DNA from: Candidatus Tenebribacter mawsonii
GTDB taxonomy: Bacteria > Cloacimonadota > Cloacimonadia > Cloacimonadales > TCS61
Direction: 5' to 3'
Assembly: GCA_030765665.1 (NCBI GenBank)
Contig: JAVCCD010000339.1
Coordinates: 1 to 40,838 of the forward strand
Length of the DNA stretch: 40,838 nt
In this document: positions 8,843 through 40,402 of the stretch, piece by piece
How the letters are laid out: every line of letters starts with the position of its first letter
Numbering within the stretch: position 1 is the stretch's first letter
The notes under the pieces: model-generated
The model's input: the letters and a program-made list of their open reading frames with translations, nothing else
What the model was told of the DNA's origin: nothing
Databases searched by the model: none
Made by a program: the position numbers and the translations under genes

Positions 8843-8849
8843 AATATCC

Positions 8850-12777: not shown

Positions 12778-12784
12778 AATTAGT

Positions 12785-14038: not shown

Positions 14039-14063
14039 ATTATATCCTTCTTAATTAGAGAAT

Positions 14064-15773: not shown

Positions 15774-15793
15774 TTATTTTCTCCTACTTATCA

Positions 15794-18672: not shown

Positions 18673-18687
18673 ACATTCTCCTTTATA

Positions 18688-19236: not shown

Positions 19237-19237
19237 A

Positions 19238-20391: not shown

Positions 20392-20395
20392 CCCT

Positions 20396-21466
20396 CTATT
20401 CCGGTCTCATTGCCAGACCTAAAGCAATAGCAAATTGTGGGTCATTTGTTGTACCTGGTCTGTCTGAATCGTCCAGATTAACGAAGGGATTGAATACTTC
20501 AGTTGGAATTTGAAGTTGCTCAGTGATAAATTCGGGAAGTCCTTTTAGACTGGCGCTTCCACCAGCTAACAAGATCTTCTTGAAATCACTGTTCCCTGCC
20601 TCTTTCACATAGAATCGGAGAGATCTTTTCACTTCTTGAGCAATAAGTTCTGCCGTAGTCTTTTCTGTAATATCTAAAGCAATGATAGAAGATTTATCTT
20701 TCTTGACATCAGCTTCTTTTATGCCATGCTCGATTTTATACCTCTCTGCTTCTTCATAAGATTTTTTTTGCTTTTTCATAATGTCTTTAGTGAAATTGAA
20801 TCCACCATAGGCGATATCACGAGCAAAAAACTTAGAAGCAGTGCTGTATATAACCATATTTGTTTTAAATGCTCCAATATTAAGAATAATATACACTCCT
20901 TCTTCTTCTTCACTATTAAGAATGTAGCTGTTAGCTACAGCCAAAGATTCCAGATCTACAATACCTGGTGCTAACCCGGCACTTGATAATGCGTTGGAAT
21001 GATCTGTTAATAATGCTTTAGTAGATGAGGCAAGTAAGATATTCATATTATTGGTTTTCTCTTCTACATTTAGAACTTGGTAATCAAGATTCATCTCTGC
21101 ACCGCTAATTGGTAAGTGCTTCTTAGCCTCAAAGAACAAAGCAGATTCCAGTTCTTCATCTGGTAAAAATATTGTCTTTATCTGCTTTATACTTGTATTA
21201 TCTCCACCTATCGACGAAACAAGATGCTTAAACTTTTTAGGTTTCAGCTTCATTGTTCTGATAAGTTGAGCTAATATAGGACCATAGCGGTCTGGAGATA
21301 GATCTGAGAATACTGGTTCTATCCCTTCCGGAATTGTTGATAGGCTTTCACAATTTAGTAGTTTGTATCCATGATGTGTTTTCTTTAGATGTACCATCTT
21401 GATGCTGTGATTACCTATGTCCAATCCGATAGACTCTTTGAATTTAACTGTTTTCGTCTTAGCCAT
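20396..21466 (-). CDS. pilM: Actin-like ATPase PilM
   Basis: Begins with IGLDIGNHSIKMV, the phosphate-1 motif of actin/HSP70-fold PilM/FtsA. Has LLAGGSASLKGL near the C-terminus. Confidence 0.85.
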   Translation of the reverse strand: MAKTKTVKFKESIGLDIGNHSIKMVHLKKTHHGYKLLNCESLSTIPEGIEPVFSDLSPDRYGPILAQLIRTMKLKPKKFKHLVSSIGGDNTSIKQIKTIFLPDEELESALFFEAKKHLPISGAEMNLDYQVLNVEEKTNNMNILLASSTKALLTDHSNALSSAGLAPGIVDLESLAVANSYILNSEEEEGVYIILNIGAFKTNMVIYSTASKFFARDIAYGGFNFTKDIMKKQKKSYEEAERYKIEHGIKEADVKKDKSSIIALDITEKTTAELIAQEVKRSLRFYVKEAGNSDFKKILLAGGSASLKGLPEFITEQLQIPTEVFNPFVNLDDSDRPGTTNDPQFAIALGLAMRPE

Positions 21467-21510
21467 GTAACCTCACATTTTTAGTCATTTTTTTATCTAT
21501 CTATATTTTT

Positions 21511-23808: not shown

Positions 23809-23817
23809 AATATCTCC

Positions 23818-24483
23818 CTATTCCGTAGCCGCATGTGAATTACCTAAAAATACAGCAGTTTCATAAGTAATTGTTCGTGTGTTTTTTCTTACGTCATCCT
23901 CATTAGATTGACGACTCTCTTTCTCACGGAATCTAACTTGTCCAACAAGTTTGATCTTCACCATTGTGGCGTTTCCTTCAGCATCTCTATGAATTACATC
24001 CCAGATCTGATTAGGATTTGTAATCCTGAATTGAGCCTGGTTGCCAATGTATTTAGCTGGTGAAGATGGGAATATTGTCTTTCTCTCAGGAAAAGATGTT
24101 AACCCATATTGTCCGTTTATCTCTAACTGACTATCATCGTTAACAGCATAAGTGACCCAGTAGCGTTCTTCCAGATTAAGGTTCAGTACAAGAGGAGTAA
24201 CTTTAATGGAATTCCGTGATGTTCCTATTACCGCTTTTTTTGCAGTAGTTAACCCTATAAGACCTTCGTCGTCAGTTACATTTTCATACATATAACCATG
24301 TCTCATGATTTCAATTGCGTCAAAGAGATCTTGCTGCAATTGAGTGTATAATTTTACTTCCTGAAAAGTTGTAGTAAAATGGATAATTCCAATGCCAAAT
24401 ATAACGAATACAAGTGTTACAAGCGGAAGTCCTGCAATTATCTCTATAAGGGAATAGCCATTATTATTTTTTAATATTTTCAT
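23818..24483 (-). CDS. Minor pilin (prepilin-type N-terminal cleavage/methylation domain)
   Basis: NNG/YSLIEIIAGLPLV, with Glu at +5, followed by a hydrophobic helix. Confidence 0.75.
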   Translation of the reverse strand: MKILKNNNGYSLIEIIAGLPLVTLVFVIFGIGIIHFTTTFQEVKLYTQLQQDLFDAIEIMRHGYMYENVTDDEGLIGLTTAKKAVIGTSRNSIKVTPLVLNLNLEERYWVTYAVNDDSQLEINGQYGLTSFPERKTIFPSSPAKYIGNQAQFRITNPNQIWDVIHRDAEGNATMVKIKLVGQVRFREKESRQSNEDDVRKNTRTITYETAVFLGNSHAATE

Positions 24484-24485
24484 AA

Positions 24486-24959
24486 CTATCCATCATCCTT
24501 CGTTCTATAAAAATAATCTTCACGCAAGATCAGAGTTCTTTCTTTATTAAGAATACTATTCAGGAAGTACTCGGGTCCATCACGCCAGGTTATTTTAATA
24601 CTTATCTTGTCGTAATCTACATATTGAGAGACTGCAAGATCTGTTGTAGTACCCATTAAGACTGGATGTATAAGACCATAAACCGGCACATCATTAACAT
24701 CATCAATCAGAAAGTTTCCAGATGTTATAGAGTTTGTATAGGTTACGCCTTCGTTATATCTGTTTAAGTATTTTACTTCTTCTAATTTCTGATGTGCTTT
24801 TAAAAGTACAACTCTATAGTGGTAATTTCCAACTGCGCTATGCCATGCATAGTACGAACTCAGGAATAATCCACTAAGAGCTATGGTTACGATTATCAAA
24901 CCAGCAAGAGCTTGAATAATACCAAAACCATCATCAGAACTTAATATCTTTTTCAACAT
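24486..24959 (-). CDS. Minor pilin-like protein with Gln instead of Glu at +5
   Basis: DDG/FGIIQALAGLIIV followed by a hydrophobic helix. Its start overlaps the pilT stop. Confidence 0.65.
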   Translation of the reverse strand: MLKKILSSDDGFGIIQALAGLIIVTIALSGLFLSSYYAWHSAVGNYHYRVVLLKAHQKLEEVKYLNRYNEGVTYTNSITSGNFLIDDVNDVPVYGLIHPVLMGTTTDLAVSQYVDYDKISIKITWRDGPEYFLNSILNKERTLILREDYFYRTKDDG

Positions 24960-26014
24960 TAGAATGCCGTCCCCGTAGCAAACATCTTTGGATTATCTGC
25001 CACTTCTTCTGCTACTTTTCTATCAACATATCCATTCATTACATGATTATATAATGATTGATCTTTAGACTGCATACCATCCTTGTTTCCAGATTGTATT
25101 ACAGAAGGTATCTGATATGTTTTTTCCTCACGAATAAGATTCTTAACAGCATTATTGGCTATCATTATCTCAAGAGCAGGTATTCTATCACTTTCATCTT
25201 TCATTGGAAGCAAGGTTTGTGCGATAACTGCCTGCAATGATTCAGAAAGCATGGAACGAACTTGAGCCTGCTGTTCTTGTGGGAACATATCAATTATCCT
25301 ATCGATAGATTTTGTAGCACTGCTTGTGTGAAGTGTAGCAAGAACAAGATGACCCGTTTCTGCAGCTGTTAATGCCAAAGAAACCGTTTCTAGATCACGC
25401 ATCTCTCCCACCAATATCACATCGGGGTCTTCACGTAAAGCAGAACGCAACGCAGCCTTAAATGACCAGGTGTCGTGTCCTACTTCCCTTTGATTCATCA
25501 GTGAGTTTTTACTTCTATGCGAAAATTCTATAGGATCTTCAATTGTAATAATATGGCAATGTTTATGGTCGTTTATGTAATCGACCATTGTAGCCAAAGT
25601 AGTAGATTTACCACTACCTGTTGGTCCGGTTACCAAAATAAGACCGCGCTGCCTCATAGAGAGTCTTGCAAGAATCTCTGGGAGATGCAGATCTTCAAAA
25701 TCTTTGATAACATTAGGAATAACACGGAATGCCACGCCTAATCCGTTTACCTGATGGAAAGCATTAACACGAAAACGTGTCTCGTCATCCAATTTTGTAG
25801 AAAAGTCGATCTCTAATTTTTCTTTAAAGATCGCAATCTGTGAATCATTCATTGTGCTGAAGATAAGTTTTTCAACTTCCTCAACATCCATCACAGGTAA
25901 ATTTAATTTTTTCATCTGGCCCAAAACTCTAATCATTGGTATTGAGCCAGCACTGATATGCAAGTCAGATGCACCGGCATCTGATGTAAATTGTAATAAT
26001 TCCTTAACAGTCAA
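24959..26014 (-). CDS. pilT: Twitching-motility retraction ATPase
   Basis: GPTGSGKSTTLA, ALREDPDVILVGEMRD, GHLVLATLHT and a PilT-size protein (351 aa). TTG start preceded by GGGGGTG. Confidence 0.9.
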   Translation of the reverse strand: MTVKELLQFTSDAGASDLHISAGSIPMIRVLGQMKKLNLPVMDVEEVEKLIFSTMNDSQIAIFKEKLEIDFSTKLDDETRFRVNAFHQVNGLGVAFRVIPNVIKDFEDLHLPEILARLSMRQRGLILVTGPTGSGKSTTLATMVDYINDHKHCHIITIEDPIEFSHRSKNSLMNQREVGHDTWSFKAALRSALREDPDVILVGEMRDLETVSLALTAAETGHLVLATLHTSSATKSIDRIIDMFPQEQQAQVRSMLSESLQAVIAQTLLPMKDESDRIPALEIMIANNAVKNLIREEKTYQIPSVIQSGNKDGMQSKDQSLYNHVMNGYVDRKVAEEVADNPKMFATGTAF

Positions 26015-26035
26015 AAAAGCACCCCCTAATTAACT

Positions 26036-26467
26036 TTAATCGAGGAGTTCTTCATCTTCGCTGCCCTCATCATCAATTCCATAACCATGATAAGATGCAT
26101 CTTCTACATCATACCAAACTGTTTTTCCTTCACCTTCAGGGAAATCTGCTGTAGAAGTAGCCATATATTTCTTTGGTGGATTACCTACAACTTCAAATTC
26201 CCAGTTTTTCTCTGTTCTGTTACCAAGATTAGTATCTTCTAAAGCGGACTCAACATCGTAATCTGCAGTAGATCCGTAAGTTTGATATTGAACTCTGAAA
26301 GTTTGGCGTAAGGCGGCAATAGCAGATTGTGCTTCGGTTGATCTTGCCTGGCGCACATAACTCATGTAAATTGGAACCGCAATAGCTGCCAAAATGGCAA
26401 TAATAACAACAACAACTAACAACTCAATGAGACTAAATCCTTTTTGATTTTGTAATTTTTTAAACAT
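26036..26467 (-). CDS. pilA: Type IVa major pilin
   Basis: KG/FSLIELLVVVVIIAILAAIAVP class III signal. RBS AGGAGG. First gene of the operon. Confidence 0.9.
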   Translation of the reverse strand: MFKKLQNQKGFSLIELLVVVVIIAILAAIAVPIYMSYVRQARSTEAQSAIAALRQTFRVQYQTYGSTADYDVESALEDTNLGNRTEKNWEFEVVGNPPKKYMATSTADFPEGEGKTVWYDVEDASYHGYGIDDEGSEDEELLD

Positions 26468-26707: not shown

Positions 26708-29700
26708 TTATTTAAGTAATAACATTCTCTTACTATCAATAATTTTTCTATCACTAACCAAGCGATAGAAATAAATACCGGAAGACACACCTTTATTATC
26801 ATCATCTGTACCATTCCAAACATATGAAAACTGCCCAGCCGGGAGTTGACCTGTGAATAGTTGTTTCACTCGTTGCCCTTTCAAATTATAAATGATCAAT
26901 TCTACATTCTGTAAGTTCTCATTGGCTAAAGAGAAAGAGATGGTTGTTGAAGGATTGAAAGGATTTGGGAAATTTGTATGAAGTACAGTTTTTAAAACAG
27001 GTATGTCATCAGCTGAAGCTGAAGTTTTTGTGATAAGTGCCGAGTAAGCTGGAATTGATTCAACACCATTTGTATACACAGATCTTATGGCAAATTGATA
27101 CGTAGCATTAGGAAGCGATATCCAGCTTTGATCAACATAAAATGTATCTGCAACTCCTTGGGCAACAAGTTCCCAGTCTTCAGGATTATTGTGTTGACTT
27201 TCATAAAACCTGTAAACGTTGTATGCTTCAAATTGTCTGTTACTTACAATGCTATTTTCAGATTTCTGTATAGTTTCTTGTTCCTCTGCCAAAGTGTTTC
27301 CCATATTAATACCATAAGCACGAATCATGAAATTACGTTCATAGTTTGGACCGTAAGAACCCAACTCTTCCCAAAGCCCTGCTGCTGTCCAATCCTCTTT
27401 AAGGAATTGCGTTCCACTCTGGAATTCCCATGGTTCACCGGTTCCATCATCCAATCCAATTGAAGTATATTCATTTGGTGTTGAGACTCCGACAAAGAAT
27501 CCTTCAAACGCTTCGATAGATTCTTCAATTTCATGAGTATTCCATTCATCATCAACGTTGTTTATCAAACCAGATTCGTAAAGTACAACATTAGCATTTG
27601 GACCATCGTTTTCATCTAATCCAAATAAATATAGTTTTACCTGATTATGCGTACCGTAATCTGAACAGAGATACCATTGAATTTCCTGAATAATTGAGAT
27701 ATTGGGATGAACAGCGCCAAATACAGCATTTGCCGGTGTTGAATTTAAACCAAATAAGAAACTCTGATCCCCATCATCGTAGCGAAATTCTCCACCACCC
27801 TGACCTGGTGATGTCCATGAAAGAGCTACTTCCATGCCAAATGGATCTTGTATAGCTTGAATGTTACCAGGAGGGAAAGCGATTTCATTCAATGTTATCG
27901 TTCCAAGATCTAAAGAAGTGCTTCCAACTGCTATCTCTTCAATATAACTATCATACCCTTCGTAGGTAATTTGTAAATCATAGGTAATGTTTGTGTAAAC
28001 TCCGCTTATAATAAAGTCACCATTTTCATCTGTTGTTGTCTGGTAATTTTCAAATCCTGTAATTTCTACAGTAGCATTCCCTAATCCTATTGCTGGGAGG
28101 TCACTCCCTACAACATGACCAGAAACAGAAACAACACCAAGCGGAATAAGATTAAAATCGAGTTCTGCTACTTCATCTTCAATAACTTCTTGAGTAATAG
28201 TTTGAGGAGAATATCCTACCAATTCTGCTGTAAAATCGTAAACATCTGCTATTACATTGCCAAAATGATAAAATCCCAGATCATCTGTATAGGTAACTGT
28301 TTGTGTCTCTTCAATAGTAACCTGTGCACCTTCCAAAGGGTTACTCTCTTCGTCATAAACATAACCTTCTACTTCTCCCATTGCACCAAGAAAGAATGTA
28401 AACGTAGTATTGGCAAAATATTCATTTGAATAGCTAATTTCCGGTGGATTTGCAGGATCAAATACTATTGTATTATCCCGCTCATATCTTGTTCTATCTA
28501 TATGCTCAAGTGTTGTAGTGTGCAAAAAATAATCAGTTGTTCCATAATTCTGAGTATCCATCGGACGATGAGACATAACAACAAGATTACCTCCATTATA
28601 AAAATATGGCGTAGTAAGCTGAATAGTAACATTGTTCGTTCCGGAAAAATATGAAACGTTTCCATTGAAAGCTTCTGTCAACGAAGTTGACGGTATCCAA
28701 CCATCAGTTAGATTAGTTTGAGTTGTCTCTCCGATCCAGATTGCTGTTGGCTTATTAAGCAGATTACTTGTAAAATTATTGTAATATGTAAGCGCTGTTA
28801 TCATTCCTTCACCGCCTGCAAGTTCATCTGCAAAATAAATAATCTCTGAAAGACTGTTTTTGTGTTCAAAACAAACTGGCGTTCTATTATTATTATCAGT
28901 TTCTTCTCCAACTGTAATTTCAATAATACCCGGAGGGAAAACTTGTACATTAAGAGTATTCGTTTCATCGTTATTGCTATTCTCATCTCCTGTAAGAAAA
29001 ACTTTTCCATAGACGTCAACTTCACCAGCCGGCTCATCTGCAGGAACGTTCCAAACAAGACTATGAACAACTGTTTCATCAGGAGCAATTGCTTGGCTAA
29101 CATCTATAGAACTTAACTCTGTCCCATTATTTTTATATAATTTTACTGTATAATTGTCTTGAGAATTGTTTCCAACATTCTTAACTGAAATATCATAATT
29201 TTCTGTGTTACCAGCATTAATTATTGAATTCCCTGTTATGCTCATGCCTGCAAGATCATTATCATAAGTAACAGTGGGTGGGAAAGTTATGCTGTCTATC
29301 CAACCCGTATCCAATCCAGTTGAGACACTTCCGTCTTTATAGTACTGCCATTTGAAAGTGCGTGATCCAGATAAAACATTTGATGTAATTTGAGTCCAAC
29401 CAACGGTTCCGGATATTTCATCAATTAAATTTCCATCAAGATAAAATCTAAGATAGTCATAATTACTCTCACTATTTACTTTCCAATAAAAACTTATGTT
29501 TCCATTATCAGTTATATCAAGTGTAACTTCTAAAGATGATGTTTGGCTATGAGTAATAACCCCACTTTGTGCACAGAAGCTTCCACTATAAGGATCACTA
29601 CTGGTAACAAACCAGTCAGCATTTCCACTTAACTGCCATTCAAAGGCAGAAAAATCTCCTGTCTCAAATCCTTCAAAATCTTGAGCGTAGATCAATGAAG

Positions 29701-29746
29701 ACATTGATATCAATATTATAAATAGTACAATTTCCTTTTTAAACAT
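26708..29746 (-). CDS. Large secreted multidomain protein with a T9SS C-terminal sorting domain
   Basis: Signal peptide. A CARDB-like segment (NAGNTENYDISVKNVGNN...). A carboxypeptidase-regulatory-like fold (GYVYDEESNPLEGAQVTI...). C-terminal FPNPFNPSTTISF...IYNLKGQRVK...SGIYFYRL...MLLLK. Confidence 0.8.
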   Translation of the reverse strand: MFKKEIVLFIILISMSSLIYAQDFEGFETGDFSAFEWQLSGNADWFVTSSDPYSGSFCAQSGVITHSQTSSLEVTLDITDNGNISFYWKVNSESNYDYLRFYLDGNLIDEISGTVGWTQITSNVLSGSRTFKWQYYKDGSVSTGLDTGWIDSITFPPTVTYDNDLAGMSITGNSIINAGNTENYDISVKNVGNNSQDNYTVKLYKNNGTELSSIDVSQAIAPDETVVHSLVWNVPADEPAGEVDVYGKVFLTGDENSNNDETNTLNVQVFPPGIIEITVGEETDNNNRTPVCFEHKNSLSEIIYFADELAGGEGMITALTYYNNFTSNLLNKPTAIWIGETTQTNLTDGWIPSTSLTEAFNGNVSYFSGTNNVTIQLTTPYFYNGGNLVVMSHRPMDTQNYGTTDYFLHTTTLEHIDRTRYERDNTIVFDPANPPEISYSNEYFANTTFTFFLGAMGEVEGYVYDEESNPLEGAQVTIEETQTVTYTDDLGFYHFGNVIADVYDFTAELVGYSPQTITQEVIEDEVAELDFNLIPLGVVSVSGHVVGSDLPAIGLGNATVEITGFENYQTTTDENGDFIISGVYTNITYDLQITYEGYDSYIEEIAVGSTSLDLGTITLNEIAFPPGNIQAIQDPFGMEVALSWTSPGQGGGEFRYDDGDQSFLFGLNSTPANAVFGAVHPNISIIQEIQWYLCSDYGTHNQVKLYLFGLDENDGPNANVVLYESGLINNVDDEWNTHEIEESIEAFEGFFVGVSTPNEYTSIGLDDGTGEPWEFQSGTQFLKEDWTAAGLWEELGSYGPNYERNFMIRAYGINMGNTLAEEQETIQKSENSIVSNRQFEAYNVYRFYESQHNNPEDWELVAQGVADTFYVDQSWISLPNATYQFAIRSVYTNGVESIPAYSALITKTSASADDIPVLKTVLHTNFPNPFNPSTTISFSLANENLQNVELIIYNLKGQRVKQLFTGQLPAGQFSYVWNGTDDDNKGVSSGIYFYRLVSDRKIIDSKRMLLLK

Positions 29747-29774
29747 TCAAACTCCTAAATTTCTTTTTTATTTA

Positions 29775-29794
29775 GTATGCAAATATTATTCCAG
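29775..29794 (-). promoter_or_regulatory. Sigma54-like -24/-12 promoter candidate upstream of the 1012-aa gene
   Basis: The minus strand reads CTGGAATAATATTTGCATAC, with GG-N10-GC spacing. Confidence 0.4.
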
Positions 29795-29927
29795 CATAAA
29801 TTCTAAAAACCATTATTAACTAGTATAACCAGAAATGAATGTTTTGGTGTCAAGCGCATAGTTAAATCCAAATAAAATTGTTTGACAATAATGTTTGATA
29901 TTGCATCTGTAAAAATGGGGTGAGTAC

Positions 29928-32900
29928 ATGAGAAGATTACTAATGCTAGTTACAATCCTATTAATTTGCGCAAATGCAATTTCAATAATTGTAGAGACTG
30001 CATCTTTCACAGAATTTCTGTATGGGGTTACCGAAGATTGCGAATATGATAACTGGGTTTCTCATGTTTCAGAAGGGATTGCAAATGAAGGATATAATCT
30101 TTACTCCCCGTGGGAAGTACAAGCTGATAGTTTTGGAACATTTGTACTTCCTGATGATGTTATGCTTAACCAATGGCAAAATGTTGTTGATGCATTTCTT
30201 TTGCAAGATTATATTGCAGTTCAAGCTTGGCTGAATATCTACGATTTTCCATATAATATTGTTGAATTCCATGATACAGATAGCGGAAACATCTACTACA
30301 TGTTGCGTGAGATACTAAATCCAGAATATTATGATTCTAATGGAACAATCTCTATTCATGATGATGAAATAGGTTCTTTTGATTATGGATGGGGACTTTT
30401 TGTACACAACCCCCAAGCGATCTCTCCAATTATTGTAACTGTTCCCCACCCGAATGATGATTTTATAACTCCTGTAATTGGCTATAAATGTTTCAGTGAC
30501 TGGGATGCAAAATTTTTGTTGATCTCTGGTGCAGGAAGAGAAGTATTTTGGGATGGATATGGAAGTTATACTAACTCCCATTCTCTATGTGATCCATCAA
30601 GAAATAATGATGTTGCATTTAATACAGCTTATAGATCATTCTGTGATGACATAAGGGATGAATATGGGCAAAGAGAATTTTCTGCTCAGATTCATAGTTA
30701 TGATTGGAACAGGCATGATAATCATCCTGATTGTCAGATATCTGCAATGAGTGATTGCCCGAACTTACCAATCAGAGATCTTTCTAATCTGCATCTCGAT
30801 ATGATAAATGCTTCACAACACATCACAATCCCACAGAATACAATAGGTTCCAATAATGAAGTTTTACTTAACGATTATTACTCTGCTAATTATTCAATTT
30901 ATGATTTCCTCTTCTATAATTGGGATGGGGAACCATATGAAGTTAATGACAATGTTGATCTTCCTGGTTATAGTGGAAATAAACAAAGGTTATATTCATA
31001 CCAAGATTGGAACGAATTTGATGTTTTTGATCCTTTCTTTCATATAGAGATGGATGAACTTCCAGGAAGTTATGACGAAACCCAAGATAATTATAATTGG
31101 TTTTATGGTTTTGATCCTGAAAGCAATTCATTCCAAATGGATAGGCTTTTTGATAATACACTGGAATATTATTCAATCTGGGTAGATGCAATGACGGATA
31201 TAGTTCATGAAGCTATGGAACTTGATGATGGTTTAACGCCTCCTACTCCGCGAAATTTTACTGCATCATATATTGACCATAATTCAATCGATCTAGTATG
31301 GAATGCTGTTTCATCTTATGATTTTCATACATATGAGCTCCTTTTTGCTGATAATCCAATTACACCTGTAAATCACACTCTGATCAATAGAGAAAATCTT
31401 GATACTTTTGCTAGTCCTCTTAATAATACATATTCTTTAACTTCACTTAATATGAACGACAACTATTATTTTCAGATTCGCTCTATTGATAAAAATGGCA
31501 ACTCTTCTATCTTAACTGAGCAACTTGAAGTGTTTACAGCACCAGCACATGTAGATGACCTTACAGCAATCGGTCTTGATTCTGAAATTAACATTAAATG
31601 GACTGCAGTACAACAAAATGGCAACATGGGATTTAACATTTATAGAAAGCAACAGAATGATGAGTTTGTTCTGATAGATAGTTGGACAAATAATTTTCTC
31701 TTATCAGGTACGCAAAATCTTTTGGAAGAATACTCTTACATTGATAATAATCTTGATAATGGAGTAATTTACACTTACAAAATTTCATCTGAAAATGAGA
31801 ATGGAGATGAATTTCCTTATGAACAACTTCAAAGCTGTTCCCCAAGTAATTACTTTAATATTTTTGTTTCAAACTCCAGTTTTACTATTGTAGACTCAGT
31901 AACATTTGCAAAAAATCAATATGCTCATAGCTGGCAAGATCCGGAATATGACATTGTAAAAAATATGGAGCTTCCAGATGAATATGTTTTCTCTGCCTTT
32001 TATGAGAGCAGCTGGATTCCTGGAGGTATGTATCTGCAGCAGGAAGTTCACGGAGATTTCTCTCCACGTGAAAGTTACCGAATCTGGAACTTGCGAGTTA
32101 AAACAAATCAACTTGATCAACCAATAGAAATATTTGTAAATCCTGAATTCATCGGCAATAATGGGAATCTATTTCTTCAAAATTTGCAAACTGATCAATT
32201 CACTAATATGGTAGATGGAAGTTATATTTTCTTTGCTGAAGATTCAGTTTATTACGATTTTAAGCTATACTGGGGTAACCTGCATCCATACGTAATTTCT
32301 GTATATTCACAAACTAAATTAAATCGTGGTGGTGATGAAATGACAATAGTATGGAATCCTCAGATTCAACAACTTATAGAATATTTTGATATTTCCTTGC
32401 AGAATGAAGATACTTCAATTTTGATTTCTGACCATGTAAACAGATTTGATGAAGAGTTTATTTGGGAAATACCTGAACAAACTGAGATCGATAAAGCTAA
32501 AATTGTAATTCGTGCTCATGCAGTTGATGGACAAATATTCGAAAAACAATCTAACGAGTTTTATGGAGTAATTCCACTAGAATATACACTCGAATATACT
32601 CAAGGCTGGCAGTTGATAACAAATCCTTGGTGTAGTGATGAGTTGTTTTTAACTTCAGATGTATTCAGCGCTAATTCAGAACTATTGGAGTTTGATCAAC
32701 ATCTTGGTTTTAGTGATAGTGATGAGTTTCAATTTGGAAATGGATACTGGCTCAATGCATCATCAGAAGGTTCTTATACAAATTCTGGATCTGTTATTAC
32801 ATCAGACAATTATAACATCCCTTTACAATCTGGTTGGAATTTGATTCCAAATCCATATTTATGTTCATATGAACCACATAATTTAATTATTATAAATTCT

Positions 32901-33851
32901 GGAGAGTATAGTTCATATAGAGATGCCGTTTTAGATAAATTAATAGCAAATGTGGTTTATGTGTACAGAGACAACAAATTTATGGTTACCAATGTAATTA
33001 AACCACATGAAGCATTTTATTTTTATGTAAACAACGAATATTATGATAATATGGAAATTAGATTCACGCCATATTTTGTAGGATACTATAATATCCCTGA
33101 AGTAGATTGGAAAGTTACCCTTACAGCTTTTCAAACTGATGGTGATGAGATAATTGTAGGATGCAGTGAATTTGCTTCTGATAACTTTGACAATGAATAC
33201 GATGTACCTGAGCCTCCAGCAAAACCGGTTCAGAACGGGATAACGATGTATATTCCCAAACATTCACCTGCTGATTCGCTTTTTCTTTATCCTAACTTGA
33301 ATTGTGAGATCAAATCATCTCTGGAAACAGGGATCTCAGAAAGTAAATTGTGGAATTTCATTTTGGAGGTACACACTTTGGATGCAGTAACACTAGAATT
33401 CGATATGTTGAATTTACCGGAAGGATATCATGCAGACATACAAATTGATGGTAATAGTTGGAATCAGTTAACAAACGAGAATTATATTTATTCCTTTATT
33501 CCTTCTCAAATTGGCATGATAGATGGCTACATTGAAATATGTAATAATGTTGCATCTGCTGAGGAGATTATTTCTAAAGCATATGATTTTGTTAACTTCC
33601 CAAATCCATTTAATCCTTCCACAAAAATTCGTTTTAATGTTCCCCAAGAAGGTAACGTAGAGTTATCTATTTACAATATCAAAGGACAAAAAGTAAAAAC
33701 TCTATGTGATCAAATTCTATCTTCTGGTAATCATGAATATGTATGGGATGGAAAGAACAACTCTAATAGTGTAGTCGCTTCCGGTATCTATTTTTTAAAT
33801 TTGAAAACTCACGAAGAAACAAGGATTAAAAAAGTATTATTGTTGAAATAA
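29928..33851 (+). CDS. Very large secreted protein with FN3-like domains and a T9SS C-terminal sorting domain
   Basis: RBS GGGGTGAG. Signal peptide. FN3-like units (PPTPRNFTASYIDHNSIDLVWNAV...; APAHVDDLTAIGLDSEINIKWTAV...). C-terminal FPNPFNPSTKIRF...IYNIKGQKVK...SGIYFLNL...VLLLK. Confidence 0.8.
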   Translation: MRRLLMLVTILLICANAISIIVETASFTEFLYGVTEDCEYDNWVSHVSEGIANEGYNLYSPWEVQADSFGTFVLPDDVMLNQWQNVVDAFLLQDYIAVQAWLNIYDFPYNIVEFHDTDSGNIYYMLREILNPEYYDSNGTISIHDDEIGSFDYGWGLFVHNPQAISPIIVTVPHPNDDFITPVIGYKCFSDWDAKFLLISGAGREVFWDGYGSYTNSHSLCDPSRNNDVAFNTAYRSFCDDIRDEYGQREFSAQIHSYDWNRHDNHPDCQISAMSDCPNLPIRDLSNLHLDMINASQHITIPQNTIGSNNEVLLNDYYSANYSIYDFLFYNWDGEPYEVNDNVDLPGYSGNKQRLYSYQDWNEFDVFDPFFHIEMDELPGSYDETQDNYNWFYGFDPESNSFQMDRLFDNTLEYYSIWVDAMTDIVHEAMELDDGLTPPTPRNFTASYIDHNSIDLVWNAVSSYDFHTYELLFADNPITPVNHTLINRENLDTFASPLNNTYSLTSLNMNDNYYFQIRSIDKNGNSSILTEQLEVFTAPAHVDDLTAIGLDSEINIKWTAVQQNGNMGFNIYRKQQNDEFVLIDSWTNNFLLSGTQNLLEEYSYIDNNLDNGVIYTYKISSENENGDEFPYEQLQSCSPSNYFNIFVSNSSFTIVDSVTFAKNQYAHSWQDPEYDIVKNMELPDEYVFSAFYESSWIPGGMYLQQEVHGDFSPRESYRIWNLRVKTNQLDQPIEIFVNPEFIGNNGNLFLQNLQTDQFTNMVDGSYIFFAEDSVYYDFKLYWGNLHPYVISVYSQTKLNRGGDEMTIVWNPQIQQLIEYFDISLQNEDTSILISDHVNRFDEEFIWEIPEQTEIDKAKIVIRAHAVDGQIFEKQSNEFYGVIPLEYTLEYTQGWQLITNPWCSDELFLTSDVFSANSELLEFDQHLGFSDSDEFQFGNGYWLNASSEGSYTNSGSVITSDNYNIPLQSGWNLIPNPYLCSYEPHNLIIINSGEYSSYRDAVLDKLIANVVYVYRDNKFMVTNVIKPHEAFYFYVNNEYYDNMEIRFTPYFVGYYNIPEVDWKVTLTAFQTDGDEIIVGCSEFASDNFDNEYDVPEPPAKPVQNGITMYIPKHSPADSLFLYPNLNCEIKSSLETGISESKLWNFILEVHTLDAVTLEFDMLNLPEGYHADIQIDGNSWNQLTNENYIYSFIPSQIGMIDGYIEICNNVASAEEIISKAYDFVNFPNPFNPSTKIRFNVPQEGNVELSIYNIKGQKVKTLCDQILSSGNHEYVWDGKNNSNSVVASGIYFLNLKTHEETRIKKVLLLK

Positions 33852-33859
33852 GAATTAGT

Positions 33860-34441
33860 CTACAAACTAAAATTAAACGAAATGCCCAATAAAACAATGT
33901 GCTCACTAAAATCTATTACATCAACGTTTTCTACTTCCTTATTGGCATATAAATATTTGTAAATTCCATAAAATCCAATTTTCCAAAAAGCTCTGATATT
34001 GATTCCCCCCTCCAGATCAAATACTGTTCCACTATGGGTTTTATCTTCGCTACCATCTTTAGGAACTTTCAACCAACCAAGTCCACCACCAGCAAAAAAA
34101 TTAATTTTGTCAGTTTTGAATGGCTTTTTCATATAAAGAAGATTTATTATTGTCATATCAGAAATTTCGTATGTGTGAGTAGGACCTGCACTGTTAGTGT
34201 AGTATTCACCGGAAAGCGAAATAGCTATAGGGCATTTGGTAAGTTTTACATCAATAGCTATCTGACCTCCACCTAATTTGTCAATCTCAGATCTTGCATC
34301 CTTAAAACCTCCCTGCCCAAATCGAATTATGAAATTTACTTTTTTCTCTTTGGCAATAAAAGTTTCTTGAGCATTAAGTTTAATATAGGGAATTGTAACA
34401 AGGCTGAACAGTAAAAAAGAGAGAATAAAGTTTCTTATCAT
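33860..34441 (-). CDS. Small outer-membrane beta-barrel protein (OMP_b-brl-like)
   Basis: Signal peptide, alternating hydrophobic and Gly/aromatic-rich strands, and a C-terminal ISFNFSL. RBS AAGGAG. Confidence 0.5.
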   Translation of the reverse strand: MIRNFILSFLLFSLVTIPYIKLNAQETFIAKEKKVNFIIRFGQGGFKDARSEIDKLGGGQIAIDVKLTKCPIAISLSGEYYTNSAGPTHTYEISDMTIINLLYMKKPFKTDKINFFAGGGLGWLKVPKDGSEDKTHSGTVFDLEGGINIRAFWKIGFYGIYKYLYANKEVENVDVIDFSEHIVLLGISFNFSL

Positions 34442-34644
34442 AACAAACTCCTTTTACAAATCTTCGAATAATCGCGGAAGTATCAAAAAAAACCATCGGA
34501 TCCAGAAATGCCTAAATTATCAAATCTAATACTTCTTTATCTGCAACTCCTAAGAAGCTTCACATAATTTACGATGTCAAACGTTTTTTTTGTAGTTTTT
34601 AGAATTAACGCTCGTACAGTATTAAATTTAATTCAAGATAACCA

Positions 34645-34675
34645 ATAAAAAACGCTTCGAAAAAATCGAAGCGTT
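34645..34675 (-). terminator. Intrinsic terminator
   Basis: A perfect 10-bp stem, AACGCTTCGA/TCGAAGCGTT (34651..34675), followed on the minus strand by UUUUUUAUU. Confidence 0.75.
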
Positions 34676-34698
34676 AAGATATCAATAATTATTATGAA

Positions 34699-36363
34699 TT
34701 ATTTAAGAAGAATCATCTTCCGGGTTTGTTGAAAATTGCCAGCTTTTAATTTATAGAAATATATTCCTGATGAAGTTGGTGTATTATTCTCATCGGTTCC
34801 ATTCCAAACAATTGAATGTGTCCCGACTGAAAGCTGATCATTAACAAGTTGCTTAACTTTTCTACCCTTTATATTGTAAATTTCTAATGTAACCAGTGCA
34901 GAGGTTTGTGTAACACTGAATTCAATTGTAGTAATTGGATTAAATGGATTAGGATAATTGCCAATAAGTTTATTTGTAGTCGAGACAAAATCATCATCTG
35001 CATCAGTTAAACTAAGAGTCATTGAGATTGGAATTATTAACTCTTCTTGTGAAGGATCATTATTATATATCACTAATTCAGTAGAATATTGACCATTCTC
35101 AAGTCCATCAGGATTAAAGAAAATTAAAATTTCTTCTTCTCCTCCGGGTTGGATTGATAAAAATTCCTGATCCACTTCAAGCCAATCAGTATATTGTGAT
35201 GAGTCATTTATTACTAACTCACAATTGAGGTCAACCCCACCACTATTTGATATAGTTAACATCTCTTGATGGATATCATTAGATATAAGAGTTACATCTA
35301 TAAAAGATGGATCACAAAGAATTGAGGGAGGAAGAACACATTCTGCTGACAATTGAACGATCAGTTCTGGTGTATCTGGGTCATTACTTGCAATTATTAA
35401 TTCTCCTGAATAATCTCCTGTCTCATCAATCATAAATCCAACTTCTACAATTTGCTGTTCAGAAGGATTTAACTCAAATTCAGTTAGATCATCATAAACA
35501 AAACCATCACCAGAAATTGAAATATTATTTATTATTAAAGTATCTAAACCAGTATTAAAGATTTCTAATTCAAGAGTGTAAAATATTTCAGGAAAGGTTA
35601 ATTCAAAAGTAAGTTCATCTTCTAACACATATATATTTGGGATTGGATCACCCATAAGAAAGCTTAGATATTGTGTCATAATAGCAGCTTTAGTATTTCC
35701 AGTCGAGCCGTCCGCCATTGCTCCAAAAAAGGCAGAAGAAGCAATTGTTCTATACTCTCCAGAGTCGTAAAAAATCCCTCTTATCGCATCATCTTGAGAA
35801 TGTGAAAATGGGGTACCCAAGTCTGCATCTAAAGCATCTATACCGTAATCAGCATTTGACCCATAAAGATAACTCATCGAAAATTCATTAAAAGTTTCAG
35901 TACTATCGGCAATAATAGTTTCTATTCCCGCATATAAAACGCAAGGTGTGGAATGTTCTCCTATCCCAAAATAAGGGAGTAGCTCTGCATGATCTCCAGT
36001 ACCCAAAATAGCACTCTCTAGGTATACAGCTTTTCCATCTTCTAAAAAATCAATTATACTTTGCATATCTTCAGATCCGACCGGATCTGGTGGAGTCCAT
36101 CCTCAACCACCACACCAAATACCAGCTGTAGCAAAAATTATATCGTACTCCGATAAATCATCAGCTAGCATAGAATCAACAACCGCGATAATCCCATTTT
36201 CTGATAATGCTGTTTTTATGCCTGCTTCCAATCCTACATATGACCATGGATCTTCTGGATTCGATATTTCGGAACCATGATCTCTATCCCAGAGAAAAAC
36301 ATTCTGAGCTGATAATATTGACAAACCTAAGATCATCAATACAAAAATGATATTTATTTTCAT
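34699..36363 (-). CDS. Secreted T9SS-CTD protein interrupted by a single in-frame TGA (36103..36105): candidate selenoprotein, or a nonsense pseudogene
   Basis: ORFs 36103..36363 (signal peptide) and 34699..36066 (C-terminal [14 protein letters not shown]...IYNIKGRKVK...SGIYFYKL...MILLK) are in the same frame, 12 sense codons apart. The junction reads GIWCGG-TGA-GWTPPDP. Confidence 0.55.
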
Positions 36364-36392
36364 TTACAACCTCTAATTAATTTTATTTAACA

Positions 36393-36412
36393 CTATGCAA
36401 TAAACGTACCAA
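36393..36412 (-). promoter_or_regulatory. Sigma54-like -24/-12 promoter candidate upstream of the UGA-containing gene
   Basis: The minus strand reads TTGGTACGTTTATTGCATAG, close to the TGGCACG-N4-TTGCW consensus with exact spacing. Confidence 0.45.
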
Positions 36413-36465
36413 AAACCTTTTCATTATGATATTTTATCTTATAGAACCTAATTCTAATTTACTAT

Positions 36466-36490
36466 TAAAAAAGCCCCAGCATGCTGGGGC
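36466..36490 (-). terminator. Intrinsic terminator of the C25 peptidase gene
   Basis: The palindrome GCCCCAGCATGCTGGGGC (36473..36490), followed on the minus strand by UUUUUU. Confidence 0.75.
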
Positions 36491-36568
36491 AAAGTATTTA
36501 TCAATAAGCAGTAACAGATAAATGTTTTTTAAAATCAAGACATATCTGTTACAGTTTTTAAGCGACTG

Positions 36569-39500
36569 CTATTTTAGCAGAATCATTTTTCTAGTGGAGG
36601 TGTAAGATGCTGTTTTCATCTTATAAAAATAGATTCCCGATGAAACAGATTTGCCACTGTCATCTTTTCCATTCCAAACAACTTGATGATTTTCTGCTGG
36701 TAGATTTGCATGTATTAGAGTTTTCACTTTCTGACCCTTTATGTTATAAACATCGAGATCTACATTTCCAGCTTCCTTTAGTGAGAAAGAAATTGTAGTT
36801 GTCGGATTGAAAGGGTTGGGGAAATTTGCATGTAGTTTATTCATGATTGGAGTTATTGTTTCATCATTGCTACCGGAAGTATTTGAATAATGCACATCAT
36901 CAATATACCAGCCTTCACCAGTTATTAAACCGGCACTACCAAATACAAATCTTAATTGTGCAGTTCCTGAATATGCAGAAAGATCAAGCACAACTTCTTC
37001 CCAATCTATCTCGCCAGCAAATACAGGTGTCCCTTCTGCAAATGGCGTGGTTGGAATATTCATAATTGTACATGGATAACCACCAATAGGTTCAACTTGT
37101 TCCCATTCTCCTCCATCAACTGAAATCTCTATAAGTCCACCATCCCATGTAATTGAACTGGTAGATCCTACATCCATCCAATGATGGAAAGCTACTTGTG
37201 CGCCTGGAAAAACTTCAACCTCCGGCATCACGAGAGCTGCATGGATAAGGTTAGAATAACTAGTTTCGCCAATTCCTCCGCATTTCATTGAGTTGCTTCC
37301 ATCAATAGTATGATTACGATAATCTTCCAGGTGCCATTCATCTAAAAAATCATCTGTAAGTATCATATGTTCCCAACCTGCATCTTCACTTTCAAAATCG
37401 TAAGCAAAAAATCCAATTGGCAATCTTAGAATAGATTGGAAAGTAAACTCACTACTGTCGATAGCATATACATTCAAATCAGAAAAATATTCAACTGGGC
37501 TATCCGCTGAGATATCTATAATGAAAGGAGTTGTTGTATTTCCAATAGCATCTGGTGCAATAGAAGGAATAACGTCTACGCCAGTTACAGTAACATAGTC
37601 ATCTGTTGAGAATAAAAAAGATTGAGACTCATAGGCGTAACCATCTCCAATATTATGAAAACTTAAATATAATTCTCCCTGTTCACCAGGGTCTAGTATT
37701 TGATCTGAGCCTGTTACAACATTGATATCAAAATTATAATACTCTAATATGGGAGCATTACAATTAAGTTCAAAACTACTTGTCCAGCTTGCACTACTTG
37801 ATGTCACTTCAATTTCAAACTCAATTATTGTGTTATCTTCTATTAAAGGAAGCAACTCGATTGTGAATGCATCTGAATATGTCATTGTAGATGAGGCAGG
37901 AATTTGTGATCCACTCATTGTATCATTAATTATTACAACTTGATCTGAATTAGTAGAAAGAACCGCAGATACTGTATTCCCAGTTGGCTGCATTCCGATA
38001 TTCTGTAGAGTTAAGTCTATCTGCAATGTATCAAGAGACTGATATGAATCATCTGCATGAATTCCAAGTTCAACATAATCAGCTTCATAATAAATAACAT
38101 ACATGTCTGGAGATATTATTGCAACTTCCGCAGAATAACGATAATGATTCTGTTTTGTAACTGTTACCTTCATTGTATTGTCAGGAACTTGCAAAGGAAT
38201 TTCAATTGCTTGTGCAGATCCAGTTGCTACAACAGATGCAATAACTTCACCATTAACCGTAAGACCTATCAAAGCACCTTCATCAGCTGTCATTTCGAAT
38301 GAATCTAATCCGGATAAAAGTTCATCAGCATGATTAACAGTTAACTGCTCTGGCATTTCGGAATGAACTGTTGAAAATGCACAACCGTGATGATGAAATA
38401 GGTTATAAGTTACTGCCTTGTTATTTGTGTTATATGGCCATGAAGATTGTTGAAGGAAATATTTACCTGCAGCATTTGCAAAAGCCGGTCTTATCCAATC
38501 CGACTCCGAAGGATTCCCACCAAATTGTGGTAAAAAGTCCTTCCACATATTATCATACATTCCCCAAACAAAAGTGTCATTTACAAAAGAATAGGAAACT
38601 TCTGAGGCTGCGATAAGCCCAAGGGCACCTTGATCATGCCGGTGAAAAAGTTCTGCCCATGAATTTTGTGCAGCATTATATTTACCTGTTAAACAGTTTA
38701 TAGAAAATACGAAGACTAGGTCTTCATTATTTAAACCATTTAAATTTCCAGTATCATAATCTGGTTCACCCCAGCCGGTAATTCCTCCATGATCTCTGTG
38801 TTGAAGCATAAAAGCACCACTGTTTACAGCGTTGTTAACATCTGTTGCATTTCCACCGGACCACCCTTCCAATTCGGAAGGTGAAGCTGGAATATAGCCA
38901 AGACCATTCGGTCCAAATACATTCAATACAGCATAAGTATTTGTAGCAGTTGACCAAGGATCGACAGCAGGATTTCCATCATAAATGGCATTTATCCTAA
39001 CTTGATCTTTCCCTAGTTCATTTTGCCAAAAACCACCTACAGTTTCAGAACAGATTTGGAACCAACGTTCAGTCTGCCATCCCAAAGCTGTTATTGGGTG
39101 ATCATAAAAGTCTTGATTAGTAGTAGGATTTCTTTCATAATCTAGAACTTTCTCGATCATAATTGCAAGCTGATCTTCGTTCTGAGCAGTCATTCTTGCT
39201 AAAATAACGTCTGGCATATCATTATTATTTACATCTGCGTATATGTTATCAGAAACACAATAGTTATTCCAAATTGGTGAGACTACTGAACTTCCGGTAG
39301 TTCCATAATCACCGAGTAACAAAACAGCAGATGGTGGAATGTCCCAACTAGTATATGCGTCATCAATATAATCTTCAATTGCACTTGCTGTATTTCCACC
39401 AACTTCGGTAGTTGTAACGACACCAGTACGTATTCCCTGCTCATTTCTGAAGATGCTAAGAGAATCTGCCCATTGTATAAAAACTGGATCATCCGGAGTT

Positions 39501-40228
39501 ATGATTATATAGTCGTAATCGTCTGTTCTGCTCAAAGAATTTGTTGGTTTACAAGTTGATAATGATTCATAGTTTAGAAACACATCACTTAAGATACTAT
39601 CCCACCAGATGCTTCGTAATCTATCTTCACCAAATTTTCTTGAACCACCTTTGAAACTAATTTTAATTCTGATATCTTTATAGACCATTAGTTCTCTTGT
39701 AATCGGATTATATTGGAAGGGTGTAATACCAAGAATTGCAGCATCTACACCTCTAATTTTCGTAATATCAGAAAGCTGAATTGGATTATCAGGGTAGAAG
39801 GAATTAGTAGTGTAAACTTCTTTATTTACTGGATATGTTAAGGGACCAGTTTCAGTATCTAAAGGTATTCTTGGAGCAGGTGCAATATTAACATCTCTAA
39901 TTATTTCAACTTGTTTATCAATAATTTCCAATTCAAGATTTGCATCATTTGGTATAGCAAAGAATCGGCCAAGACCTGGCAGGTCTGGCATTCCTTCATC
40001 GTTTGGTAACAAATTACCCGTAAGTGATGGTTTCAACATTTTGATACCGTTAACTTCAATTTCTTCTAATGCGAATTCATGTATTGAGTACTCAACAATT
40101 ATCTCAGTCTCTGATGCATTTATCAGATTCAATCCTTCCTTATTCCAATTCTCATCAAATTTTATAATAGTAGAATTTAGAAAACTAACAATACTCACGA
40201 CCATAAAAACAAAAATTAATTTTTTCAT
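36569..40228 (-). CDS. Peptidase C25 (gingipain-like) family protein with a propeptide, Ig-like/CARDB-like domains and a T9SS C-terminal sorting domain
   Basis: Start placed at MKKLIFVF, with GAGGTG 4 nt upstream. C25-type core: YIIITPDD...LLLGDYG...DNIYADVNNNDMPDVILARM...HRDHGG (His)...FSINCLTG (Cys). C-terminal FPNPFNPTTTISF...VYNIKGQKVK...SGIYFYKM...MILLK. Confidence 0.75.
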   Translation of the reverse strand: MKKLIFVFMVVSIVSFLNSTIIKFDENWNKEGLNLINASETEIIVEYSIHEFALEEIEVNGIKMLKPSLTGNLLPNDEGMPDLPGLGRFFAIPNDANLELEIIDKQVEIIRDVNIAPAPRIPLDTETGPLTYPVNKEVYTTNSFYPDNPIQLSDITKIRGVDAAILGITPFQYNPITRELMVYKDIRIKISFKGGSRKFGEDRLRSIWWDSILSDVFLNYESLSTCKPTNSLSRTDDYDYIIITPDDPVFIQWADSLSIFRNEQGIRTGVVTTTEVGGNTASAIEDYIDDAYTSWDIPPSAVLLLGDYGTTGSSVVSPIWNNYCVSDNIYADVNNNDMPDVILARMTAQNEDQLAIMIEKVLDYERNPTTNQDFYDHPITALGWQTERWFQICSETVGGFWQNELGKDQVRINAIYDGNPAVDPWSTATNTYAVLNVFGPNGLGYIPASPSELEGWSGGNATDVNNAVNSGAFMLQHRDHGGITGWGEPDYDTGNLNGLNNEDLVFVFSINCLTGKYNAAQNSWAELFHRHDQGALGLIAASEVSYSFVNDTFVWGMYDNMWKDFLPQFGGNPSESDWIRPAFANAAGKYFLQQSSWPYNTNNKAVTYNLFHHHGCAFSTVHSEMPEQLTVNHADELLSGLDSFEMTADEGALIGLTVNGEVIASVVATGSAQAIEIPLQVPDNTMKVTVTKQNHYRYSAEVAIISPDMYVIYYEADYVELGIHADDSYQSLDTLQIDLTLQNIGMQPTGNTVSAVLSTNSDQVVIINDTMSGSQIPASSTMTYSDAFTIELLPLIEDNTIIEFEIEVTSSSASWTSSFELNCNAPILEYYNFDINVVTGSDQILDPGEQGELYLSFHNIGDGYAYESQSFLFSTDDYVTVTGVDVIPSIAPDAIGNTTTPFIIDISADSPVEYFSDLNVYAIDSSEFTFQSILRLPIGFFAYDFESEDAGWEHMILTDDFLDEWHLEDYRNHTIDGSNSMKCGGIGETSYSNLIHAALVMPEVEVFPGAQVAFHHWMDVGSTSSITWDGGLIEISVDGGEWEQVEPIGGYPCTIMNIPTTPFAEGTPVFAGEIDWEEVVLDLSAYSGTAQLRFVFGSAGLITGEGWYIDDVHYSNTSGSNDETITPIMNKLHANFPNPFNPTTTISFSLKEAGNVDLDVYNIKGQKVKTLIHANLPAENHQVVWNGKDDSGKSVSSGIYFYKMKTASYTSTRKMILLK

Positions 40229-40402
40229 ATTCACCTCATTTTTTATTAAAAACATTTTTTTTTTGAGAACATTAAGTCAATAGAATATTGGAAAGTTCTA
40301 ATCTGACTGTTAGTATATGACATTTAATTCAAAATAACCTAACAAATCTCCTTTTTACTTCTCTTAATAGTAGGTGTTCTAGTATTTTTCATAATTTATT
40401 AA

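Follow-up and report, generated by a model that had tools for sequence, protein, structure and literature searches.

Several bacterial selenoproteins that leave the cytoplasm have been catalogued, among them DsbA-like and DsbG-like proteins, a thiol:disulfide interchange protein, an FCYXU-type TonB-dependent receptor, and the MtrB/PioB-type barrel GSU2204 (PMC13188914). The consensus for bacterial selenocysteine insertion sequence (bSECIS) elements specifies a loop of 3 to 9 nt, a stem of 4 to 16 bp, a G in the first two loop positions, a distance of 16 to 37 nt from the UGA, and a minimum free energy (MFE) of -7.5 kcal/mol or lower (PMC13188914). Remnant SECIS-like structures have been described 3' of Cys codons in Cys homologues derived from selenoproteins (PMC1794560), and the description of a "Cloacimonetes type" selenocysteine tRNA (tRNA-Sec) supports the presence of the selenocysteine machinery at the level of the phylum (PMC5330540). 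We analysed a 40,838-nt stretch of DNA from Candidatus Tenebribacter mawsonii, a member of the Cloacimonadota (contig JAVCCD010000339.1; referred to here as the window), in which one reading frame on the minus strand, 36363..34699, is interrupted by a single UGA followed by a hairpin. Comparison with related sequences suggests that this frame is very probably a single gene for a secreted selenoprotein, with the UGA read as selenocysteine (Sec).

The in-frame UGA and its conservation

Current open reading frame (ORF) calls divide the locus into an 86-aa ORF (36363..36103) and a 455-aa ORF (36066..34699) that occupy a common frame on the minus strand. The sole internal stop in this frame is the TGA at 36105..36103, and this codon plus 12 sense codons make up the whole gap between the two ORFs, whose junction reads DIIFATAGIWCGG*GWTPPDPVGSEDM. 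The immediate context of the codon is DIIFATAGIW-C-G-G-[TGA]-G-W-T-P-P-D-P-V-G-S. The predicted selenoprotein precursor gene (34699..36363, minus strand) has 554 sense codons, counting the proposed Sec-UGA at codon 87 (36103..36105, minus strand), and ends at a true TAA stop (34701..34699). Codon 84 (TGT, 36112..36114, minus strand) encodes the Cys that is the first residue of the C-x-x-U motif.

TGA is the ordinary stop of 5 of the 30 large ORFs in the window, which has a G+C content of 34%; there is thus no global reassignment of the codon. No TGA in the window other than that at 36105..36103 has long open frames on both sides within a coding region. An earlier examination of the window made from its letters alone (the sequence-only reading) had described the shared frame, the TGA plus 12 sense codons, and the junction residues, and had stated that TGA acts as a normal stop elsewhere in the window; rereading the window bore out each of these points. 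When the window and related loci totalling about 300 kb were searched for a second selenoprotein gene, as another in-frame TGA flanked by long ORFs, only antisense noise was returned. A pair of HdrA-like genes in one frame in locus L004 was considered as a candidate for selenocysteine read-through and was rejected, because TAA stops separate the two genes.

A protein search with the N-terminal 257 residues as the query returned 26 relatives. Of these, 24 start 3' of the TGA column, at start codons that differ from one relative to the next, and the remaining two read through the column with a "W" where the underlying DNA is TGA. Three database entries, P0001, P0002, and P0032 (loci L001, L002, and L037), have the TGA translated as Trp and come from short, low-GC contigs. 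The Trp in these entries is evidently an artefact that arose when the gene caller picked genetic code 4, which hid the stop codon.

Scans of genome and metagenome collections added 28 loci, for a total of 33 related loci, and the added loci from named genome records were from Cloacimonadota or "uncultured bacterium" metagenome-assembled genomes (MAGs). TGA was present in the same column in 32 of the 33 loci, at 35 to 86% identity, always in the context C-x-x-TGA-G-[W/V]-T-P/A-P apart from a Tyr in place of the Cys in L029, and the architecture with one internal TGA was likewise seen in 32 related loci. The codon was kept at only 35% identity in L018 (complete chromosome OY762964.1) and L019. 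The exception, L020 (27% identity), has neither the Cys nor the loop. The DNA of four distant members (L034, L037, L038, and L039) also has TGA at the junction in every case, so that the stop at this column is TGA in 36 of 36 stop-carrying homologous loci. Where enough sequence was available, about 250 to 470 sense codons follow the TGA before the true stop.

The choice of stop codon differed between the two positions in 25 aligned orthologues: the internal stop was TGA in 25 of 25, and the true stops were TAA (11), TAG (9), and TGA (1). The start codon available 3' of the TGA is not conserved; it may be Met or Val or lie at later positions, and it differs between orthologues. Conservation over the 12 codons that lead from the TGA to the ATG at 36066 is among the highest in the gene.

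Searched exhaustively with HMMER, 1.84 billion cluster representatives yielded 149 relatives. Among these were 17 N-terminal fragments of about 66 to 194 residues, approximately 13 of which end with Cys plus two residues (for example, ...GIWCDG and ...GIYCVG), and 62 C-terminal fragments that begin with VTPPG or MTPPG or slightly later. These fragments, together with the TGA in the DNA of all four distant members, indicate that the split is a property of a large family and not of the window. Three loci are irregular. L029 (3001-3732), in which Tyr replaces the first Cys, carries an extra TAA and looks degraded, as does L026, which has an extra stop at about codon 203. L035 (4001-4370) looks rearranged, with an N-terminal fragment and the TGA followed by a short tail that resembles the end of a type IX secretion system (T9SS) sorting domain.

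Six full-length relatives (P0028, P0029, P0030, P0037, P0039, and P0066) have Cys at the TGA column, within a C-x-x-C-G-x-T-P-P motif in the same columns. The motif region is GIWCTGCGSTPPG in P0028, GVWCIGCGDTPPG in P0029, and LWCLSCSATPPG in P0030, and P0037, P0039, and P0066 have an equivalent CxxC motif. P0028 and P0029 match NCBI entries from Ca. Cloacimonas and Cloacimonadota MAGs that are labelled hypothetical or T9SS; accessions of Cys forms include Ca. Cloacimonas HCX73176.1 and MCD4829333.1. The codon at the Sec column is UGC in the two Cys-form genes L040 and L041. The first Cys of the motif is retained in all of the Cys forms and in every TGA-carrying locus other than L029. Both cysteines and a stretch of six residues are missing from more remote relatives, which identifies the CxxC/CxxU loop as a subfamily-defining insertion. 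Within that subfamily the UGA column holds TGA or Cys codons only. Sec/Cys pairing of this kind, in a CxxC motif, is the standard mark by which genuine selenoproteins are recognised. The column thus holds Cys or the proposed Sec, and the two halves are always fused, as would be expected if the sequence-only reading of a selenoprotein were correct.

A candidate SECIS element

The hairpin CAGAUCC-GGUC-GGAUCUG (36072..36089, minus strand) starts 13 nt after the UGA, and the first base of its loop is the 21st nt after the UGA, a spacing of 20 nt. Folded alone it has a free energy of -9.3 kcal/mol. With a 4-nt loop that begins with GG, a 7-bp stem, the 20-nt spacing, and an MFE of -9.3 kcal/mol, it fits the bSECIS consensus. 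The closest known parallel is fdhF of E. coli K-12, in which the UGA is followed after 18 nt by a GGUC loop; in the window the distance is 20 nt and the loop is the same GGUC. In both genes the hairpin lies inside the coding region 3' of the UGA, and both hairpins agree with the bSECIS consensus. The window hairpin, unlike that of fdhF, has no long lower stem reaching back to the UGA. The 7-bp GGUC hairpin and its position had been described in the sequence-only reading, which had also stated, correctly, that fdhF has a GGUC loop at a similar distance from its UGA.

Comparison across sequences showed that compensatory changes maintain the pairing of the hairpin. In a gap-free alignment of 25 orthologues, evaluated against 500 shuffles and against controls in which the pairing partner was slid, the 7-bp helix was paired in 95.4% of cells. 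Compensatory double changes were found in three of the seven pairs (A-U to C-G, G-C, or U-A; U-A to A-U), and the other four pairs were invariant. None of the 500 shuffles reached the observed covariation or pairing, and moving the partner by 1 to 3 nt left only 9 to 49% of cells paired. The hairpin is thus kept in orthologues that carry the TGA, which was one of the comparisons on which the sequence-only reading had staked its proposal. Synonymous-site diversity across the N-terminal domain is minimal at codons +2 to +16 after the UGA (0.32 to 0.38 versus a typical 0.55 to 0.70), and this is the stretch that covers the hairpin.

Some members of the family have a hairpin of a different form. 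L032 has a perfect hairpin with the 3' arm shifted by 1 nt and a GUU loop, and in L018 and L019 the hairpin GGCUC-GGUC-GAGCU lies 9 nt further downstream. Three of the distant members have unrelated stems in the same place: GGUGUC-GUU-GGCACC in L034, AGGAGU-AGUU-ACUCCU in L037, and CGGAAUC-GUU-GAUUCCG in L038. The loops of these three begin 21 to 22 nt after the UGA.

Proposed selenocysteine recoding and its alternatives

Taken together, the conserved UGA and the covarying hairpin indicate, from comparative sequence evidence, that the UGA is translated and that the hairpin matters. In the mechanism that we propose, a ribosome arriving at the UGA of codon 87 would encounter, 13 nt downstream, a hairpin whose GGUC apical loop serves as a bacterial SECIS element. 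The hairpin would recruit SelB carrying Sec-tRNA(Sec), selenocysteine would be inserted, and translation would go on for 467 more codons. The expected product begins with a Sec-type signal peptide, which is followed by an N-terminal domain with a glutamine amidotransferase (GATase)-like fold that bears the C-G-G-U loop, by two immunoglobulin (Ig)-like domains, and by a T9SS sorting domain. The combination of a signal peptide and a T9SS sorting domain leads to the expectation that the protein is exported, presumably by a T9SS, and displayed or released outside the cell. There, the Cys/Sec pair would most likely form a redox or metal-binding centre based on a selenenylsulfide.

Several observations weigh against this proposal. 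In the window sequence alone the hairpin is at chance level: its folding z-score is -1.41, 18 of 200 shuffled sequences fold as well, and the window contains 31 perfect 7-bp hairpins compared with about 34 in shuffled sequence. The significance of the hairpin therefore rests on cross-sequence comparison only. A scan of the window with Rfam at gathering thresholds returned a tRNA-Arg only and no match at the UGA site. The distant member L039 lacks a typical hairpin, and the upper stem of fdhF has a bulged U, whereas the window stem is a perfect 7-bp helix without a bulge. ARAGORN found no tRNA-Sec in the window or in 23 related loci with flanks of up to 10 kb (about 300 kb), and the support for selenocysteine machinery, which comes from the literature, is at the level of the phylum. 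Finally, both Cys-form genes examined keep a hairpin with a GGUC loop, which is thus not exclusive to the UGA forms. After its UGC, L041 (P0029; 10001-12847) has CGGUGC-GGUCG-GCACCG in the same register as the window hairpin, and L040 (P0028; 118-2454) has GGCUC-GGUC-GAGC in the register of L018 and L019. The sequence-only reading had tied the hairpin to UGA recoding, and on this point it must be corrected, because the structure is not specific to TGA. The most economical reading of these two hairpins is that they are remnant SECIS elements, which would imply recent single-base conversions from Sec to Cys, but their presence leaves some room for a role of the hairpin that is independent of selenocysteine.

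One alternative to selenocysteine is that the UGA is translated in another way, by a near-cognate Trp or Cys tRNA, by a Sec-like tRNA that is delivered by SelB and charged with Cys, or by a suppressor tRNA, to yield CxxC or CxxW. We consider this improbable, although the sequence evidence, while establishing translation of the codon and the importance of the hairpin, does not identify the inserted amino acid. The failure to find a tRNA-Sec in the window or the related loci searched, and the existence of Cys forms with the same hairpin, would also fit such decoding. The restriction of the column to TGA or Cys codons in the CxxC/CxxU subfamily is, however, the classic Sec/Cys signature, the hairpin fits the consensus for elements of the SelB type, and tRNA-Sec is known for the phylum. 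A need for Cys would be better served by a plain UGC, as in the paralogues.

It is highly improbable that the TGA is a real stop that separates two genes, one for an 86-aa secreted peptide and one for a 455-aa protein that starts at the ATG at 36066. Gene callers annotate this locus and nearly all of the homologues in that way, and TGA is an ordinary stop elsewhere in the window. If there were two genes, however, the start of the downstream ORF would not be expected to vary as it does (Met, Val, or later), nor would the 12 codons from the TGA to the ATG be expected to show some of the highest conservation in the gene. A T9SS sorting domain would be present in the downstream ORF without a signal peptide, the modelled fold appears to require both halves, and the Cys-form homologues are uninterrupted. 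A real stop would also be TAA or TAG in some homologues and TGA in others, as is seen at the true stops. Least probable of all is that the locus is a pseudogene, that it contains a sequencing error, or that it comes from an organism that decodes TGA as Trp or Gly under a reassigned code. Some database entries do give W at the codon, and the extra stops of L029 and L026 make those two loci look degraded. Dozens of independent assemblies and lineages nevertheless have the same TGA, and the short contigs behind the W entries, which are code-4 calls, have TGA in the DNA. In the window TGA terminates 5 of 30 ORFs, and there is only a single plausible in-frame TGA in 40 kb. This last explanation is, on the comparative sequence data, already contradicted. 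Recoding of the UGA as selenocysteine is therefore the reading adopted in what follows.

The protein, its neighbours, and known selenoproteins

The predicted signal peptide, MKINIIFVLMILGLSILSAQ (36304..36363, minus strand), was read from the sequence; it has a typical n-h-c layout that ends in SAQN, with likely cleavage near the boundary between SA and QN, and A-Q-N is invariant in the orthologue alignment. It is followed by an N-terminal domain of about 230 aa (35614..36303, minus strand) that is modelled as a class I glutamine amidotransferase-like (flavodoxin-like alpha/beta) fold. The first Ig-like domain (HYDIN/VesB/DUF1573-like; 35353..35577, minus strand; residues 263-337) matches PF22544 with 44.2 bits against a cut-off of 25.5. 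The second (Cep192 D3/D4-like; 35026..35280, minus strand; residues 362-446) matches PF22067 with 29 bits against 27 and is missing from shorter orthologues such as P0001. The T9SS type A C-terminal sorting domain (34711..34956, minus strand; residues 470-551), which had already been recognised in the sequence-only reading, passes the curated cut-offs of both PF18962 (34.7 bits versus 27) and TIGR04183 (40.6 versus 23).

Structures were modelled with AlphaFold for the 70%-identical orthologue P0001, which has Trp at the site, and for the natural Cys form P0028. The predicted local distance difference test (pLDDT) score was 91.5 for full-length P0001 and 97.3 for the N-terminal domain of P0028. 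The P0001 model has a helix at residues 2-17, in the signal peptide region, ahead of the domain. In these models of homologues both flanks of the UGA column fall within one compact alpha/beta domain, and the CxxC/U motif is placed directly after a central beta-strand, where it forms a short helical turn. A fold search with the full-length model was swamped by matches to the Ig-like domains and was rerun with the N-terminal domain alone. Foldseek then matched this domain in the Protein Data Bank (PDB) to class I glutamine amidotransferase-like folds with TM scores of 0.53 to 0.64. The matches included STM3548 (2gk3), the GIFT domain of IFT52 (5fms), GATase subunits (2d7j and 1wl8), the ThuA-like protein 4e5v, and trimerisation domains of GH42 proteins. 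The N-terminal domain had no match among sequence profiles from Pfam (scans of 32 members), NCBIfam, or the PDB. Membership in a GATase family is likewise not indicated, as none of the 32 members matched a Pfam or NCBIfam GATase model, and the likeness is at the level of the fold only. Three positions, equivalent to Y114 and E116 of a Y-x-E-G motif and to D176 in the window protein, hold invariant Tyr, Glu, and Asp across the superfamily, including members without the Cys/Sec loop, and may mark a conserved site that does not depend on the redox loop.

The gene is flanked by a terminator-like hairpin 3' of the upstream gene (36473..36490, minus strand) and by another, with a T-run, right after its own true stop (34651..34675, minus strand); it is thus its own transcription unit. 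The upstream gene (36569..40255, minus strand) encodes a 1228-aa gingipain-like peptidase with a C25 propeptide, a Peptidase_C25 domain, and a T9SS sorting domain. It was considered as the T9SS sortase PorU and rejected, because only its C-terminal domain matches, with 76.9 bits against a cut-off of 420; the protein is a C25 peptidase that is itself cargo. A C25 peptidase gene is directly upstream in the 16 related loci that have enough flanking sequence (L003, L004, L006-L009, L011-L015, L022, L025, and L027-L029), and the catalytic domain is 69 to 92% identical across the window and these related loci. The terminator separates the two genes, and a functional link between the C25 cysteine peptidase and the redox selenoprotein is possible.

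The locus belongs to a cargo cluster (26708..40255) of four consecutive large genes whose products all have a terminal T9SS type A sorting domain. The selenoprotein and the C25 peptidase are two of these products, and the others are a 1012-aa protein, which has a weak S-layer-glycoprotein-like match, and a 1307-aa protein. Three genes in the window other than the selenoprotein gene thus carry the sorting domain, and no gene for T9SS machinery was found in the window. Farther along the minus strand (11984..26467) is a type IV pilus or type II secretion-like cluster that encodes a prepilin peptidase (A24), a T2SSF platform protein, two T2SSE ATPases (one of them PilB-like, with an MshEN domain), a secretin, PilM, and an N-methyl pilin. 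A tRNA-Arg(TCG) gene is located at the window edge (47..123), and a DnaG-like primase (5788..6930) and a tyrosine integrase (10404..11516) follow. The stretch with the tRNA-Arg, the integrase, and the primase (47..123, 5788..11516) may be a mobile element integrated beside a tRNA gene.

The selenoprotein family appears to be new, widespread in Cloacimonadota, and missed by catalogues and annotation pipelines. NCBI labels family members as a truncated "T9SS type A sorting domain-containing protein." In a systematic annotation error, databases split dozens of sequence clusters into an N-terminal fragment (86 aa in the window) and an N-terminally truncated protein, and other entries were translated with the wrong genetic code to give Trp. 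As a result of these split and mistranslated entries, domain and family definitions for the protein are missing. Because Sec and Cys forms have the same hairpin, a single base change (UGA to UGC or back) may be enough to switch between them, which makes the family a good natural system for studies of Sec/Cys interconversion. That the gene is consistently paired with one for a gingipain-like cysteine peptidase suggests a testable hypothesis on the role of the selenoprotein.

A broader interpretation, which we offer tentatively and regard as doubtful, is that the window protein is the founding member of a large, uncatalogued family of T9SS-secreted selenoproteins at the cell surface of Cloacimonadota, in which the Cys/Sec loop on its GATase-like scaffold would act as an extracellular selenol redox partner. 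One possible role would be to maintain the C25 peptidase with its catalytic cysteine in a reduced or activated state. Cloacimonadota are anaerobic and abundant in digesters and sediments, and the selenoprotein, if real, would place selenium chemistry on their surface. Confirmation would establish a new family of selenoproteins with a non-thioredoxin fold and, as far as the catalogue shows, the first with a T9SS sorting signal (PMC13188914).

Searches for prior descriptions were consistent with this novelty. NCBIfam had no match in residues 1-260, and the sole match to a selenoprotein model, OS_HP2, scored 18.9 bits against a cut-off of 100 and fell within an Ig-like domain. A May 2026 review tabulates 119 prokaryotic selenoprotein families, none of which shares the motif, the fold, or the sorting domain of the window protein (PMC13188914). 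Literature on selenoproteins with T9SS signals or on selenoproteins of Cloacimonadota yielded nothing relevant beyond the tRNA-Sec report.

The best structural matches are the non-catalytic GIFT, STM3548, and ThuA-like members of the GATase-like fold (5fms, 2gk3, and 4e5v), with TM scores of 0.57 to 0.64 and Foldseek E-values of 1e-5 to 4e-7. They differ in having only 9 to 14% sequence identity and no six-residue CxxU/CxxC insertion, and they are not T9SS cargo. Close counterparts are also found among the Cys-form paralogues in Cloacimonadota, for example HCX73176.1 and MDN5355058.1 ("large repetitive protein") and MCD4829333.1 ("T9SS type A sorting domain-containing protein"). They share the N-terminal domain, the C-x-x-[C/U]-G-x-T-P-P loop, the T9SS tail, and the GGUC hairpin with the window protein and its gene, but have UGC for UGA, extra middle domains, and only about 35 to 45% identity. 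A catalogued class I glutamine amidotransferase-type selenoprotein (NF004836) belongs to the same broad fold class as the N-terminal domain. Judged by its description, it is set apart by a GxUxG motif in contrast to CxxUG-TPP in the window protein, which does not match NF004836 and which, unlike that selenoprotein, has a signal peptide and a T9SS domain.

The sequence-only reading had considered an exported selenoprotein with a T9SS domain to be unusual. This holds for the T9SS domain and for the fold, but export itself is already catalogued (PMC13188914). Like the window protein, the catalogued exported selenoproteins leave the cytoplasm, and in several of them a CxxU or UxxC motif goes with a presumed role in redox chemistry; none of them is T9SS cargo or has this fold, and the window protein matches none of their NCBIfam models and is not thioredoxin-like in fold (PMC13188914). 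The proposed recoding mechanism is of the ordinary bacterial type, and the novelty lies in the T9SS tail, in a fold that is not thioredoxin-like, and in how large the overlooked family is.

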